This document shows positions 5,080 to 63,485 of a stretch of DNA of 64,000 nucleotides, one piece after another (the stretch's first letter is position 1; each line of letters begins with the position of its first letter). Origin of the DNA: a virus (lineage: Duplodnaviria > Heunggongvirae > Uroviricota > Caudoviricetes); IMG/VR virus record IMGVR_UViG_3300002542_000292; one strand, 5' to 3'. A program made the position numbers and the translations under genes. The notes below the pieces were generated by a model, which was not told the DNA's origin, made no database searches, and worked only from the letters and a program-made list of their open reading frames with translations.

Positions 5080-5128
5080 GCACAACACTCCTTACACGTT
5101 TTGGGCCGACGGTGACGTCGACCCATGC

Positions 5129-5215
5129 GGTGGGGCGCCGAAGATGGGGAGTCGGGGCGGTCTGTAAAACCGTTGCCTTTGAGCTGAGTGGGTTCGAATC
5201 CCACCTCCACCACCA
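5129..5215 (+). tRNA. tRNA-Tyr(GTA), type II with long variable arm, CCA encoded
   Basis: Acceptor GGTGGGG/CTCCACC, D-stem CCGA/TCGG, anticodon stem GCGGT/ACCGT with loop CTGTAAA, T-arm GTGGG-TTCGAAT-CCCAC, discriminator A plus CCA. Confidence 0.8.
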
Positions 5216-5254
5216 CCATTCAAAATGATAATATATATACATCACACATCCGAA

Positions 5255-5280
5255 GGGGACCAGGAAATCTGGTCCTCTTT
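5255..5280 (+). terminator. Hairpin GGGGACCAG-GAAAT-CTGGTCCTC followed by TTT, after tRNA-Tyr
   Basis: 9-bp stem with one G-T pair read directly; short T-run. Confidence 0.45.
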
Positions 5281-5401
5281 AAGTATGCATGTCGGGTTTG
5301 CAGCATATGCAATACATAACTGTAGCAGAAGTCGTCGCTATTTCATGACGACAATGGGACATACTCTAGTATACGCCCTCTCCATTGATACGAATATACT
5401 A

Positions 5402-5431
5402 TTGACGACAGCAGTTTACGTGTCGTATAAT
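5402..5431 (+). promoter_or_regulatory. Sigma-A-like promoter TTGACG-N18-TATAAT
   Basis: TTGACG at 5402-5407, TATAAT at 5426-5431. Confidence 0.5.
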
Positions 5432-5610
5432 ATCCGTGTTGGGTTTGCAAGATGTAACGTCGTGATGTATTAGACCTGTTGCGGCTAAAACAGAAGCTAT
5501 AAAAAGGTACCCAGGGACTGGTCCCCCGTGTGGTGCACCTTACCCAACCAACATAGGATTTGGGGCGCATTTCGCAATGTGCCTTCATTCATATAAGGAG
5601 GACAATTGAC

Positions 5611-5661
5611 ATGAAACTCGGTTACATGTCGCCGTCGGAATACGGCCGAATAGGAACGTGA
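5611..5661 (+). CDS. Mini-ORF (16 aa, MKLGYMSPSEYGRIGT) with perfect RBS AAGGAGG; possible leader peptide
   Basis: ATAAGGAGGACAATTGAC-ATG read directly; lies downstream of the 5402 promoter and upstream of the 5718 ORF. Confidence 0.25.
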   Translation: MKLGYMSPSEYGRIGT

Positions 5662-5717
5662 TTCATGCACCAGCTGTATGTCGGTGTAAATCCAACCCAC
5701 GTTCCTGGTAGATTCGA

Positions 5718-6074
5718 TTGGCTTCCTGGAAAGAAAATCTGCCCAAACCATCCTACAAATTCCTCGGATATGATTGGGCGGAACTCGCGGATTGCTTCGG
5801 TATCGCTGTGGAGGAATCGGAACTCGATGTGACAGACGCTTTTTCTGACGACAAAATTCGGTGCGAAAAAGTCAAAGATCACGTGAACAAAGCCGTCGAT
5901 TTTGATGCAGTAGTCAACCCGCAGACGTTGGCTGATGTAATTGCATTCTTGGAAAAATTCCGGGGGAACTGCATTGACGACGACAGACATGTGGTAGATG
6001 CACTTTTCCGTATCGAACGTCCATTCACGTTTGTTGTTTGGTTCTGCAATAACCTCCATCTTTTTTGGAACTGA
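5718..6074 (+). CDS. Hypothetical acidic protein (118 aa)
   Basis: ORF ends 4 nt before a strong bidirectional terminator; no RBS seen; the overlapping minus-strand ORF would start inside the terminator hairpin. Confidence 0.4.
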   Translation: MASWKENLPKPSYKFLGYDWAELADCFGIAVEESELDVTDAFSDDKIRCEKVKDHVNKAVDFDAVVNPQTLADVIAFLEKFRGNCIDDDRHVVDALFRIERPFTFVVWFCNNLHLFWN

Positions 6075-60237: not shown

Positions 60238-60250
60238 TATTCCTCTCCAT

Positions 60251-60290
60251 ACTTGAAGGCAGGAATGCTTAAGCATTCCTGCCTTCAAGT
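60251..60290. terminator. 40-nt perfect palindrome ACTTGAAGGCAGGAATGCTTAAGCATTCCTGCCTTCAAGT
   Basis: Between convergent genes. Confidence 0.75.
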
Positions 60291-60946
60291 ATGTCGACCA
60301 TTTTGGGGATATCGTTTGTGATGAATTTGCCATATTCTTCCAGGTATTCTGCCGTAATTCCCGACTGTAGCGTTGCATATTCTGCGAAGATGGAAAGAAG
60401 ATCTTCCACGATGTTCGGATCTTGATCTCCTATTTCTTCGACGAGAGCGATGTACTTCCCATTGAGGTGGAACAGGCGACATGCGCAAAAGTCGAAAGCT
60501 TTGGTGTTGTTCTGCATGCGGATGATGTCTTCCACGTCGGAGAAGGTATACACCGCATAATCCGCAGGAATGACGTCGAGTGCAATTTCTCCTTGTTCGA
60601 CGTGTCCTTCATCGTAGTAATCTTCCACCACGTCTTCGTCTTCGTCGGTATCTTCGTCTTCTTCTATATCCGCGCCACAGCTCAGGTACTTTACAAGAGC
60701 CATGACGTTCGGTTCAGACTTGTCTTTTTCTTCGCAAATGGTGACTTGAAATTCCGTGGGTTGTGCGGCAAGGTCGTATTTCCTTACCACCACATCTATG
60801 GCATAAGTCGCCAGACGTTGCGTGGCTTCCACACTTTTGCGCACCTGATTCGCATTTACTCCAACGCTTTCCAGAAGGCTAGCCTGGTCGAATATGCAGA
60901 CGAATTCGTTTTCGTTTTTCCTGATGATTTGAACCACGAATAACAC
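60269..60946 (-). CDS. Highly acidic hypothetical protein (D/E-rich tract)
   Basis: 225-aa ORF with IEEDEDTDEDEDVVEDYYDE. Confidence 0.45.
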   Translation of the reverse strand: MLFVVQIIRKNENEFVCIFDQASLLESVGVNANQVRKSVEATQRLATYAIDVVVRKYDLAAQPTEFQVTICEEKDKSEPNVMALVKYLSCGADIEEDEDTDEDEDVVEDYYDEGHVEQGEIALDVIPADYAVYTFSDVEDIIRMQNNTKAFDFCACRLFHLNGKYIALVEEIGDQDPNIVEDLLSIFAEYATLQSGITAEYLEEYGKFITNDIPKMVDILEGRNA

Positions 60947-61066
60947 CGCCTTCCGTGCCTGTGTAGACGAAACGGAAACTTTAACGTTCCGTTACGAAAA
61001 TTTTAATATGAAAAAGTATGAAAAGTCAATACATTGAACCGAATGCAGATCGGTCCTATTATTTAA

Positions 61067-61096
61067 TTGACAATGCAACTGCATACATGATATAAT
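61067..61096 (+). promoter_or_regulatory. Consensus promoter TTGACA-N18-TATAAT
   Basis: TTGACA 61067-61072 and TATAAT 61091-61096 read directly; ~100-nt leader with CTTGCAAAC/CTGCAAAA repeats before the ParM-like gene. Confidence 0.6.
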
Positions 61097-61200
61097 CTGA
61101 CATGAAGGTCAAAGTCTTGCAAACAGCCATAGTACCGTGCAGACGACCGTACAGACAAGGGTGCTGGGTTTCCCAGACTGCAAAATGGGAGGTTGGATAG

Positions 61201-62253
61201 ATGTCACTGAAGGTTTCCGTAGACGCGGGGTACGGCTTTACCAAAGTCATCTCCAGCAAAGGAAAGCAAGCCGTTTTCCCAAGTCTCGTCGGATACGGAC
61301 GAGACAGGCTCAATCTGCTGAGCGAGAAAGATGGCAAGGAAAACCTGGAGAACCTCCAGGTAGTCATTCGGGATGGCGGCGAAACTTACAACTACTTCAT
61401 CGGCGAACTTGCCAAACGCGAGAGCGAGAACGCAACCTACATCATGGGGACCGACCGGCTGGCGGACCACCGGGCGAAGGCTTTGGTGCTGACGGCTGTG
61501 GCTGTAGTCATGGGGGATCACAACGACTCCGTCGAAGAACTCGCATTGGGTCTGCCCCTCCAATACTACAGCAAGCATCGGGGAGAACTGCAGAAAGCTT
61601 TCGAACAAACGAAGGCAGAGATCTCCTTCGTCTCCGGCGGATTCGTTCCGAAAACCATCGAATTCAACAGGGTGAGCGTTTACCCGCAAGCGGCCGGCGC
61701 TCTTTGGGCGCAACTTTTCAACGACAAGGGTGAATTTCGGAATCCGAAGCTTTCGGGTCTTGTTGGACTCATTGATATCGGGTTCAAGACGACGGATTTC
61801 ATCGTTATCGACCTCAACGACGGAATGCGGCTCCGTTCGGAACTGTCTGGTACGATCGAACAAGGCATGCGGCAGGTCATCGAAAATTCGCAACGTTGGT
61901 TCGAACTGCAGGTCGGCAATTCCGTGGATCCCAACGAATTCGAACACGCCATGCTGAAGGGCGACTGCCAATTCACCTACAGCCAATACATCGGCGGGCA
62001 GCGCATCCGCAAGGAATACAACCTCAGGCCGATCTACGACAAATTCAAAGCCGAACTTGCAACGACGATCAAGGAACGTGTGCGGCAGAAGTGGGGTTCG
62101 CGTATCAACTTTTTCCACATGGTGTTCCTTGCGGGCGGCGGCGCGATGGCACTGCACAAATACTTTGACGATTTCGAACTCGAAAGCAAGCTGTGCAACA
62201 CGCCGCAAATGTCGAATGCGAAGGGATTTCTCCTTATGTCCAGCATCAATTGA
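61201..62253 (+). CDS. ParM/StbA-family actin-like ATPase
   Basis: N-terminal VSVDAGYGFTKV (actin phosphate-1 motif), LIDIGFKTTD (phosphate-2); GGAGGT RBS. Confidence 0.7.
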   Translation: MSLKVSVDAGYGFTKVISSKGKQAVFPSLVGYGRDRLNLLSEKDGKENLENLQVVIRDGGETYNYFIGELAKRESENATYIMGTDRLADHRAKALVLTAVAVVMGDHNDSVEELALGLPLQYYSKHRGELQKAFEQTKAEISFVSGGFVPKTIEFNRVSVYPQAAGALWAQLFNDKGEFRNPKLSGLVGLIDIGFKTTDFIVIDLNDGMRLRSELSGTIEQGMRQVIENSQRWFELQVGNSVDPNEFEHAMLKGDCQFTYSQYIGGQRIRKEYNLRPIYDKFKAELATTIKERVRQKWGSRINFFHMVFLAGGGAMALHKYFDDFELESKLCNTPQMSNAKGFLLMSSIN

Positions 62254-62442
62254 TGCAGGACGATATACGAAGGGGATGTGTACATACAGTTCACATCCCC
62301 TTTTATCATTTTTGGCAATATACATACAATCCGTCTTGTTAACAAAGACTTTTATTGGAAAGTCTTGACAAAATACCCAACCATATGGTAGAATCAAAAT
62401 ATGGATTTGTGAATATTATGTGTAGTGTAAGGAGTGGTTGGA

Positions 62443-63485
62443 TGTATATTGTCAGACAAGTTCAAGGGCAGGAAGGGATCGTGAATGCATTTACCTTCAT
62501 GCCCAGAGGTTCTCTGTTGAAGGAGTGCGCGGATTTTATCACCGTACACTGCCGGATGTCAGAATTCATCGATGTGCCAAGCGGTCGCATGAACATGGTG
62601 GTAGAGCTTGGCGCACCGGGATTCCGCAGGTACACGGGACAACCGTCCTTCATGTTGGGACTTGTTTCCACTGCGGACGGAATTCGGTTGCATTATCCGG
62701 AATCCCATGCCGGAATGTCGGATGCAGATTTCCGCAAAATGGTCGGACTGGATGACGACCGCGAGTGGGACGAATTCCGTTCCGAACTTGCGGAAGATGT
62801 GTTCGCAGCTTGCGAACAGATGGGCTTCGCCAACAAGAACTTCCGTATTCGCGTCATCTATGTTCGCGGAGAACCACGGAAGATTCGGTTCCGTCCGAAA
62901 TCGATGATTGCGGACTATCTGATGGAGGTCGGGATCGACCTCGACCTATCCGGGTTCATCGATTTGGAAAACCGGCCCAAGAAGAAGGGCAAGGACAACG
63001 AACCCATCGAAGTCTATCTGGCACAACTCCGCAAGGAACTCCGCGCAAAAGGGTGGTCCGAAGCGGAAATCGAAGCGGAAGTGGAAAGACAGTCCACGGT
63101 TGCCCAGTTCGACATCATGCTCAGCCTGTACTACACGACATGCGGTCAATTCTTCCCGCTCGCAATGTACACTTCAGCCAGCGGGGGAGTAAAGTTTTGG
63201 AATGGCACGGAATCGAACAGATACCAACAAGATCTGGTGGGGATCGTCAGGGTGCCGCCCGAAAAACTCAAGGACTTCATGGAGAACCTGCATGGGGAAG
63301 TGTTGGCGGTTCTCCATGAAATGGGGATCAAATACTTGTCCAATTCGGTGTTTGATCTCGGTCTCGATGAACCTTGGGCAGATTCCGTCCGGGACATCGA
63401 CATGGAGACAATCAGCAAACTCCGGAAAAAACCGACCAAACCGACCAAACCGACCAAAAAGACCTCCAAAAAAGTCGCTGTCTGA
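62443..63485 (+). CDS. Hypothetical protein encoded downstream of parM-like; C-terminal (KPT)3 basic repeat
   Basis: ATG after GTGTAAGGAGTGG; tandem CCGACCAAA x3 at 63429-63456. Confidence 0.45.

Follow-up and report, generated by a model that had tools for sequence, protein, structure and literature searches.

A repeated motif enclosing the Shine-Dalgarno site of unrelated genes in a family of large uncultured elements

The DNA analysed here, referred to as the window, is a 64,000-nucleotide (nt) stretch filed as the IMG/VR virus record IMGVR_UViG_3300002542_000292. It corresponds to bases 66,730-130,729 of a 301,935-bp high-coverage metagenome contig (ENA ERZ795070 NODE_12), which we treat as a very large plasmid-like element of a Paenibacillaceae-type Firmicute. 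In this window a short motif, TGTAAGGAGTGT, recurs at the ribosome-binding sites of many genes. The exact 12-mer is present in 7 copies, while 0 are expected from 100 shuffles, and 10 copies are found when one mismatch is allowed (0.2 expected). With three looser copies (14943-14955, 46519-46530, and 51280-51291), the total amounts to 13 in 64 kb. The motif, which spans 12-16 bases around the ribosome-binding site, accompanies about one gene in six (about 15-20% of the element genes) on the element and its uncultured relatives. In 12 of the 13 copies, GGAG is located 5-11 nt (mode, 8 nt) upstream of a start codon with an open frame behind it, the exception being the copy at 5085-5096; because of this position, the AAGGAG core is a Shine-Dalgarno (SD) site. 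A repeated leader motif functioning in translation initiation, as a sequence-only reading of the window had proposed, was therefore confirmed. Genes were called with our own heuristic caller, and the promoters, transcription starts, and terminators are predictions; the element sequence read consists of the window and a further 20 kb, namely, about 84 kb of the 302 kb (~28%).

On the minus strand, an exact copy at 7139-7150 is the ribosome-binding site of an ORFan gene, 6117-7136 (339 amino acids (aa), ATG at 7136). Its promoter has the -10 box TGTTATAAT about 18 nt upstream of the motif, its terminator lies 5 nt past the stop codon, and no homologues of it were recovered in our search. The exact copy at 10470-10481, which comprises the full 16-mer TGTAAGGAGTGTTGTG, belongs to a membrane ORFan, 9520-10464 (314 aa, ATG at 10464), and the variant TGTAAGGGAGTGT at 14943-14955 to a frameshifted ankyrin gene (ATG at 14937; 14845-14937 plus 14460-14885). 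Two copies with one mismatch, at 24672-24683 (GGAA) and 25038-25049 (AGTAAGGAGTGT), precede the ORFans 24430-24666 (78 aa) and 24775-25032 (85 aa), respectively. The former is followed by a terminator; the latter has a promoter with the -10 box TGGTACAAT and a terminator, and its orthologue in a related contig, L093, keeps GGAGTGTTG. The partial copy GGAAGGGAGTGT at 46519-46530 serves a small membrane ORFan, 46307-46513 (68 aa; promoter TTGACC-18-TACAAT), and another, GGATTGGAGTGT at 51280-51291, serves an HD-domain gene, 50085-51275 (396 aa; promoter TTGACT-18-TGGTACAAT, with a terminator). Finally, an exact copy at 56669-56680 precedes a 25-aa hydrophobic open reading frame (ORF), 56586-56663, after which a terminator follows. 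As for the split ankyrin gene (14460-14937), its 30-aa ORF (14845-14937) matches the N-terminal part, and the ORF 14460-14885 the C-terminal part, of an intact 186-aa counterpart at 12723-13283 of L093 (52% identity), and the split gene may be a pseudogene, an assembly error, or an example of programmed frameshifting.

On the plus strand, exact copies are the ribosome-binding sites of an ankyrin-repeat gene, 18105-18767 (220 aa; motif at 18086-18097, promoter TTGACG-17-TGGTACAAT, terminator at the stop codon), an ORFan starting with GTG, 32457-33107 (216 aa; motif at 32437-32448), and a DUF1294 gene also starting with GTG, 58088-58354 (88 aa; motif at 58070-58081, promoter TTGCAA-17-TGTTACAAT, with a terminator). 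A copy with one mismatch (…GTGG) at 62426-62437 belongs to the ORFan 62442-63485 (347 aa; promoter TTGACA-18-TGGTAGAAT, with a terminator). The remaining copy, at 5085-5096 on the minus strand, is exact and comprises the full 18-mer CGTGTAAGGAGTGTTGTG, has no credible gene behind it, and is antisense to the leader of tRNA-Tyr; it is referred to as the orphan copy hereafter. A degenerate relative, TGTAAGGGG, at 24231-24239 (minus strand), upstream of a 51-aa gene, 24066-24221, was excluded from the count.

Most of these sites had been listed in the sequence-only reading, which gave 12 starts and overlooked the copy at 7139-7150 upstream of gene 6117-7136. Some members of that list require revision: the start at 11967(-) carries GGAAGGAGGTTGTG, a GGAGG-type site without the flanks; the one at 24221(-) has only the degenerate relative TGTAAGGGGGTATG; no credible gene begins at 5079(-); and several starts were off by a few bases, the true start codons being 10464, 24666, and 25032. 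The genes were also described as encoding mostly small proteins, which is correct for part of them: the products range from 25 to 396 aa, and 6 of the 13 exceed 200 aa. These products are mutually non-paralogous in an all-against-all blastp comparison, which rules out a paralogous family dragging its leader along as the source of the repeated motif. No Pfam or PHROG family was assigned to them except for the ankyrin repeats, a weak HD domain, and DUF1294.

When 23 copies taken from three genomes are combined in a logo, a conserved block, tGTAAGGAGTGTtg, of 12-14 nt with sharp edges emerges: the information falls to about 0 beyond -5 to +9 relative to GGAG, and the single bases G-4, T-3, T+4, G+5, and T+6 are near-fixed. 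The downstream flank TGT(T)GTG, earlier called invariant, is real, with its T(T)GTG part being weaker than the core. The motif is asymmetric and shows neither a dyad nor a convincing direct repeat.

The pairing with 16S rRNA was modelled with a Bacillota-type tail (GGAUCACCUCCUUUCUA), which may differ from that of the true host. AAGGAG pairs with this tail over 6 bp. The predicted duplex energy is -8.8 kcal/mol for the motif and -9.3 kcal/mol for the core with neutral flanks, as compared with -15 kcal/mol for a GGAGG-type site and -29 kcal/mol for a perfect complement. The flanks contribute no duplex energy, yet they are nearly invariant; the earlier claim that they extend beyond the anti-SD complement thus stands, and extended anti-SD pairing is ruled out as their cause. 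In addition, the T after GGAG is invariant, which prevents the longer GGAGG-type pairing. A clear contrast was found among the sites resembling ribosome-binding sites in 156 kb of family sequence: GTAA occurs on the 5′ side of 34 of the 75 GGAGT sites and of 1 of the 68 GGAGG sites (Fisher p = 9e-11). Since GTAA is tied to GGAGT and not to GGAGG, the element has two discrete classes of ribosome sites, and the host-like housekeeping genes (gyrA, FtsH, SPFH, PhoH-like, thymidylate synthase, and others) have GGAGG-type sites. The motif is accordingly more than an ordinary SD site. A hidden RNA structure or thermometer was rejected, as the folding of the leaders is the same as in other genes and no Rfam family was found; readings as an RNA polymerase pause consensus, a cre site, or a Spo0A box were dropped by inspection only, the best-conserved bases being a misfit.

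The window contains about 30-35 strong sigma-A-type promoters (TTGACA, 17-18 nt, TGnTAnAAT), and most of the motif copies are located 18-27 nt past a -10 box (full range, 18-47 nt). From these predicted promoter positions, the 5′-untranslated region (5′-UTR) of the motif-carrying mRNAs would be about 25-35 nt long. A promoter satisfying a stringent definition exists within 75 nt for 8 of the 12 motif genes and for 18 of the 59 other genes (p = 0.024), and a strong intrinsic terminator exists within 35 nt after the stop codon for 9 of the 13 motif genes. Owing to their own promoters and terminators, the usual unit is a monocistronic promoter-leader-ORF-terminator cassette. It was also found that ATGTA is enriched 4.5-fold in the first 40 nt after the -10 boxes (e.g., 4855-, 32415+, 46553-, 49662-, and 53700+); one cluster of them lies 2-4 nt past the -10 box, approximately at the expected transcription start, irrespective of the type of ribosome-binding site. 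ATGTA may represent a preferred start context, possibly with a link to the ATGTAA that forms part of the motif.

This layout admits explanations in which the flanks have no partner in trans. One is that the block is the best local design for a very short Firmicute leader: a U-capped SD of 6 bp, free of sequestering C and about 10-20 nt from the 5′ end of the mRNA, where the ribosome would shield the message from 5′ decay in the manner of STAB-SD-type stabilizers. The spacing of 18-27 nt in most cases, which brings the motif near the predicted 5′ end, is consistent with this explanation. So are the low C content of the region from -30 to -1 (7% in the motif leaders against 14% in the others; p = 2e-4), the moderate SD (-8.8 kcal/mol), and the fact that no regulator gene was found in the scans of the window proteins. 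However, such an optimum should allow many equivalent sequences, whereas here single bases are near-fixed and the flanks are coupled, and this base-specific fixation and coupling weigh against it. Moreover, about an equal number of promoter-proximal genes of the element have ordinary GGAGG sites, and the motif leaders do not have a lower folding energy than other leaders. We consider tuning in cis alone unlikely, although it deserves serious attention.

The same positions, at about +10 to +30 of sigma-A-type promoters for most copies, suggest another possibility, namely, that the 12-bp block is a DNA operator with the SD embedded in it, to which an element-encoded repressor binds as a roadblock downstream of the promoters. 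The orphan copy, at about +6 to +17 of the tRNA-Tyr promoter in the opposite orientation, would be permissible for a DNA site. Nevertheless, the site has no dyad or convincing repeat, it keeps a fixed distance from the start codon but a variable one (18-47 nt) from the promoter, 12 of the 13 copies are co-oriented with the gene, and some copies in relatives (position 864 of L130 and 5299 of L149) have no nearby promoter. A DNA operator is thus judged to be very unlikely. In a further reading, NTG-TAA (ATG, GTG, or TTG followed by a stop codon) in front of the SD forms a start-stop mini-ORF that modulates the real initiation. The base before TGTAA is indeed biased (A 20, G 10, T 3, and C 0 in 33 copies counted by eye), and one copy has ATG-TGA in place of NTG-TAA. 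This mini-ORF, however, has no SD of its own, and its location 12-22 nt past the -10 box is away from the predicted 5′ end. The N position has low information in leaders that are C-poor anyway. Because spacings of 8 and 9 are equally common, TAA does not keep one reading frame relative to the real start. From the out-of-register spacing and the N position with its low information, an in-frame TAA or a start-stop mini-ORF was rejected, and we regard the idea as extremely improbable.

The conservation of the motif was examined in two contigs syntenic with the window, L093 (a 175-kb Logan contig, GC content 44%) and L096 (34.7 kb, 40%), which were fetched by protein homology and are therefore unbiased as to the motif. 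At the nucleotide level, they share about 65-75% identity with the window in the coding regions, and each has 4-5 motif copies in about 20 kb, behind sigma-A-type promoters. The upstream region of the gene for a 216-219-aa protein (window gene 32457 and its orthologues in L093 and L096) is informative: the islands kept there are the -35 box, the -10 box, the 11-nt block GTAAGGAGTGT (L093 7489-7499 and L096 1456-1466), and the start codon, while the leader between the islands is 26, 21, and 19 nt long and unalignable in sequence. As the block was kept while the neighbouring leader eroded, this is a phylogenetic footprint of selection on the flanks. Furthermore, a scan of JGI metagenomes with a 17-mer revealed further contigs of 115-259 kb (GC content 40-43%) with dense copies and the same architecture, although they have few genes in common with the window. 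With these, the motif is present in L093, L096, L130, L136/L149, L140/L150, L151, and L163; L130, for example, has 7 copies in 12.8 kb, but the density in L130-L163 is biased by ascertainment because these contigs were found via the motif. Thus, AAGGAG is not all that persists elsewhere; the flanks are kept as well.

Outside this family, the motif was scarcely encountered. GTAAGGAGTG occurs in 33 copies in 147 kb of family loci, while 0 copies were found in 118 kb of Paenibacillaceae-like chromosomal contigs and 0 in a 50-kb part of a P. thiaminolyticus megaplasmid that resembles the element in its genes. The SPFH homologues P0003, P0004, P0007, and P0010 proved to be chromosomal and served as negative controls. 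The megaplasmid part is the 100-150 kb stretch of the cultured 359-kb megaplasmid of strain SY20 (NZ_CP106993.1), which encodes tRNAs, dCTP deaminase, an M23 peptidase, type IV secretion parts, ClpX, a sigma factor, and many small ORFans; its ribosome sites are of the ordinary GGAGG type. The 17-mer gave isolated single matches only in 596 Gb of reference genomes (GTDB), a scan of IMG/VR with a 16-mer gave single chance matches and no multi-copy carrier, and blastn of a 34-nt consensus against cultured phages and PLSDB plasmids yielded no carrier of repeated copies; a literature search for the sequence string gave no match. The motif is therefore dense only in this family of uncultured elements and is lineage-specific.

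The comparison of relatives also bears on the idea that the copies have been kept uniform by recombination and descent, with promoter-plus-ribosome-site modules acting as exchange homologies and individual bases having no function. The region is mosaic: a variant 97% identical to the window, L098, lacks the cassette 9234-10710 (the promoter, the motif, the 314-aa membrane ORFan, and two small ORFs), and L097, also a near-identical variant, continues with unrelated sequence past 9255. In addition, the motif has been gained or lost between orthologues, and the monocistronic units surround ORFans. On the other hand, no common sequence links the -10 box to the motif in the different copies, and this distance ranges from 18 to 47 nt; the copies thus did not arise by recent duplication of one module, and recent duplication of the whole promoter-leader module is ruled out for the same reason. 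Orthologous sites keep the block where the neighbouring leader has been erased, and the indel boundaries observed in L097 and L098 (two cases) are away from the motif copies. The unalike spacers and the orthologous footprint weigh against this concerted evolution, which we regard as decidedly unlikely.

The orphan copy, which is not a ribosome site, deserves separate description. It overlaps the tRNA-Tyr transcription unit at 5043-5215 on the plus strand, which consists of a promoter, TTGACA-18-TGATAAAAT (5043-5072; near-consensus, with 11 of 12 hexamer matches and a TG extension), a leader (5079-5128), and tRNA-Tyr (5129-5215). On the minus strand, the frames behind 5085-5096, of 25 or 67 aa, coincide in part with two promoters; upstream of the copy, no minus-strand promoter was found, and a minus-strand terminator exists further upstream (5528-5512). 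Its complement, CACAACACUCCUUACACG, on the plus strand lies 7-18 nt into the predicted transcript, in the unpaired 5′ part of a leader of about 50 nt that is predicted to consist of 23 unpaired nt followed by a hairpin (5102-5125; -14.8 kcal/mol). In the variants L166-L170, 2 of the 8-10 substitutions in 2.9 kb fall within this hairpin, and in the plus-strand RNA they change a C·A mismatch to U-A and an A-U pair to G·U. Two origins of the orphan copy can be envisaged: it is a candidate antisense regulator or a relic of a rearranged cassette, judged from a single instance.

If it is the former, the tRNA-Tyr 5′ leader released by RNase P would act as a small RNA whose CACAACACUCCUUACACG pairs with the motif and blocks ribosomes on a whole regulon. 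Complementarity to one RNA would explain why unrelated genes share flanks, and the copy has no credible ORF or promoter of its own while the opposite strand has the near-consensus promoter. The complement of the leader agrees with the family consensus over 16 nt (with the 18-mer, it is perfect over 18 nt), and the predicted duplexes between the leader and the initiation regions of motif genes average -24 kcal/mol (-15 to -36), as against -11 kcal/mol for other genes. It is also noted that the genomes carrying the start-associated sequence (SAS) of Cluster K mycobacteriophages, which is described below, hold one orphan copy away from gene starts. However, the strong duplexes are expected by construction, although they still show that pairing is feasible for all the targets, and tRNA 5′ leaders are usually short-lived. 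Neither the upstream regions of the other 15 tRNAs of the window nor the parts of the relatives that were read showed a second antisense copy. The sequence GTGCGT, common to the orphan copy and the site at 18091 beyond the motif, would fit a relic of a rearranged cassette. The available variants of the region are 98.6-100% identical (most >99%), so conservation at this leader is uninformative. An antisense regulon of this particular kind is considered quite unlikely.

Taken together, the motif is a composite, selected start-associated sequence in autonomous cassettes: its position, its copy number, the co-occurrence of the flanks, its conservation in relatives, and the cassette layout are established. 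Since bases that the ribosome does not need have been kept by selection, the motif probably marks a co-regulated gene set. The sequence-only reading had argued from the flanks for an extra function, such as a ribosome-standby, regulator, or processing site; the argument for some extra function is reasonable and now better founded. We tentatively favour, at somewhat less than an even chance, the view that the flanks are the recognition element of a trans-acting factor exerting common post-transcriptional control, the antisense case included. A cassette has a strong host-type promoter (sigma-A, with an extended -10), a C-poor 5′-UTR, tGTAAGGAGTGTtgtg, and a single gene that is in most cases an ORFan, starts 8-9 nt past GGAG, and ends in an intrinsic terminator. 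The pairing of AAGGAG with 16S rRNA would be a deliberately moderate 6-bp SD, in which the invariant U after GGAG would block GGAGG pairing, and the flanks G-U-A-A and U-G-U would be read base-specifically by a protein or an RNA. Such a factor may control about 15-20% of the element genes, possibly by occlusion of the ribosome site or a timed shut-off. The sole candidate partner visible in the sequence is the tRNA-Tyr 5′ leader of the element, with its perfect 18-nt complement.

Several results speak against this view. Among the approximately 50 window proteins compared with Pfam and PHROGs, no trans-acting protein (CsrA, RegA/RegB-like, S1, S21, KH, or similar) was recognized, nor was a candidate for an RNA-binding protein or a nuclease. 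The folding energy of the leaders does not differ between motif genes and other genes, and they accordingly lack a structural signature pointing to a protein site. Gain and loss of the motif were also observed among orthologues: it is absent from the window genes 33163 and 17936 and present in their L093 and L096 counterparts, while it is present at window 14937 and absent at L093 12723; it is therefore dispensable gene by gene. The ascertainment bias in the motif-found contigs noted above should be added to these points.

Among known systems, the closest parallel is the SAS of Cluster K mycobacteriophages, a 13-bp asymmetric sequence, GGGATAGGAGCCC, which occurs in 11-19 copies 3-7 bp before gene starts (PMC3203893). 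The SAS genes are non-structural and belong to different families, and SAS has positions unable to pair with 16S rRNA (PMC3203893). It is absent from the host genomes, and several phages hold a single copy off the gene starts (PMC3203893). Pope et al. (2011) left open whether its binder is a host or phage RNA or protein (PMC3203893), and a 2025 survey of 188 genomes still called for functional tests (PMC12699233). SAS and the present motif are alike in being short and asymmetric, in containing an SD core (AGGAG), and in recurring a few bases ahead of the starts of many unrelated genes, mostly non-structural or ORFan; both have conserved positions that do not pair with 16S rRNA, are kept across subclusters or relatives, and have one orphan copy. 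In contrast, tGTAAGGAGTGTtg is unrelated to GGGATAGGAGCCC and lacks its GGG...CCC outer symmetry, the host phylum is Bacillota instead of Actinomycetota, and the carrier is a plasmid-like element of about 300 kb instead of a 60-kb temperate siphovirus. Moreover, no 17-bp inverted repeats of the ESAS type were seen here, and the copies usually have their own sigma-A-type promoter and terminator. By this comparison, the motif agrees with SAS in all aspects of functional anatomy, and it is an analogue standing outside the Cluster K family.

Other systems share single aspects. STAB-SD of Bacillus thuringiensis cryIIIA and the polypurine stabilizer of SP82 early RNA are Gram-positive stabilizers of the mRNA 5′ end; the STAB-SD elements are long perfect complements (GAAAGGAGG) that may also lie away from start codons and lack conserved flanks outside the pairing. 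The likeness is an SD-like sequence close to the start of a strongly promoted transcript, whose 5′ end could be covered there by a bound 30S subunit, but the SD here is only 6 bp, is tied to the start codon, and has the flanks as its conserved part. Arbiol et al., in 2010, reportedly described the promoter-early stem-loop (PeSL) cassettes of T4-type phages. These resemble our cassettes in forming plastic regions of small ORFans with their own host-type promoter and stem-loop or terminator, present or absent between close relatives. They differ in that their repeated part is the promoter and stem-loop, not a conserved ribosome-binding site, and recombination junctions inside the motif were not found in the two indels seen here.

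In T4, RegB cuts GGAG in the SDs of early genes and requires GGAG only, and RegA binds the initiation regions of many early mRNAs at sites that are AU-rich around AUG. They illustrate that one phage-encoded factor can act on the ribosome sites of an entire class of genes transcribed by the host RNA polymerase, and the element has GGAGT and GGAGG classes; no homologue of either was found by PHROG or Pfam among the window proteins scanned. The RNAs derived from tRNA spacers (e.g., 3′ETS-leuZ of E. coli) are 3′ or internal spacers that sponge small RNAs by base-pairing with them. The tRNA-Tyr 5′ leader, predicted to have an unpaired complementary stretch and a hairpin, would likewise be a by-product of tRNA processing, and to our knowledge, no 5′ leader acting as an anti-ribosome-site RNA on a regulon has been described. 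The CsrA/RsmA sites are A(N)GGA in hairpin loops, usually two per target, with the SELEX consensus RUACARGGAUGU, and Paenibacillaceae encode CsrA. They have in common with the motif a GGA core overlapping the SD and a UGU just downstream; however, GGA is not presented in a hairpin in the present leaders, which are C-poor and unstructured, the second GGA is inconsistent, and the register is off by one.

The window as a whole characterizes the carrier. It encodes gyrase A and B, ribonucleotide reductase, an FtsH-like protease, PhoH/PIN, a PurZ-like adenylosuccinate synthetase, an M23 peptidase, SPFH/NfeD, thymidylate synthase, SpoVS, MecA, and ArsC/Spx-like proteins. Plasmid-type functions on the element are a TraG/VirD4-like coupling protein, Replic_Relax, and an actin-like ParM/Alp protein; type IV pilus genes lie immediately to the left of the window. 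The closest matches of TraG (33-35% identity) are in Paenibacillus and Geobacillus megaplasmids, and the closest cellular relatives of the SPFH and YkuK proteins are in Paenibacillus, Cohnella, and Alicyclobacillus. No phage structural genes were seen among the window proteins, and no close DNA relatives were found among cultured phages and plasmids; a search of phages, viral contigs, and GTDB with a 731-aa window protein gave nothing useful. The element may alternatively be a phage-plasmid. Its 16 tRNA genes in the window, all on the plus strand, are spread over 5129-16363, where small ORFan cassettes on both strands are interspersed among them; L096 has a different set of 16 tRNAs adjoining its SPFH locus.

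Some other features of the window were also recorded. Homologues of host regulators and quality-control proteins (FtsH, SPFH/NfeD, ArsC/Spx-like, SpoVS, MecA, DnaJ-like proteins, and HU) are encoded at 33691-35469, 25151-26561, 43532-44226, and 60269-60937, and at 12732-13124 of L175; this unusual cargo hints at manipulation of host proteolysis or sporulation control. The adenylosuccinate-synthetase homologue (20983-22248, plus strand; L093 15717-16925) has as its top PHROG phrog_1211, annotated as the PurZ-type enzyme of the 2-aminoadenine (Z-base) pathway, and is 39-41% identical to phage homologues; the element might modify its DNA. The ribonucleotide reductase block (28000-32000) has a GC content of 36-37%, while that of the rest of the window is about 46%, and is 73% identical to L096 at the nucleotide level; its low GC content suggests a separate acquisition. 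A 15-nt tandem repeat, ATTCGCTCAACTAT, of 4.9 copies (15961-16031) with an iteron-like look is located directly 5′ of tRNA-Cys. At 5402-5830 on the plus strand, a strong promoter (5402-5431) is followed by a leader of about 180 nt, an AAGGAGG site, and ATG at 5612; the part 5611-5828 is 73.6% identical to L096 12967-13179 and has no Rfam match and no long ORF in frame. This region could be a small gene or a novel leader RNA.

These findings have several implications. The motif is a practical marker for further members of a family of uncultured elements of about 120-300 kb, whose cargo includes tRNA arrays, gyrase, ribonucleotide reductase, a PurZ-like enzyme, and homologues of host regulators. 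It is also experimentally tractable: the cassettes are simple and movable, the flanks are separable from the SD, and the tRNA-Tyr leader is one concrete candidate partner. If the antisense model were true, it would represent the first regulon governed by a tRNA 5′-leader fragment, comprising about 15-20% of the element genes, and would offer a mechanism for SAS-type elements with unexplained orphan copies. SAS has been documented, and has stayed unexplained, in one group of mycobacteriophages since 2011, and an independent example, with another sequence, now exists in another phylum and another type of carrier. This suggests that large mobile elements may more generally mark some of their genes with specialised ribosome-site signatures.

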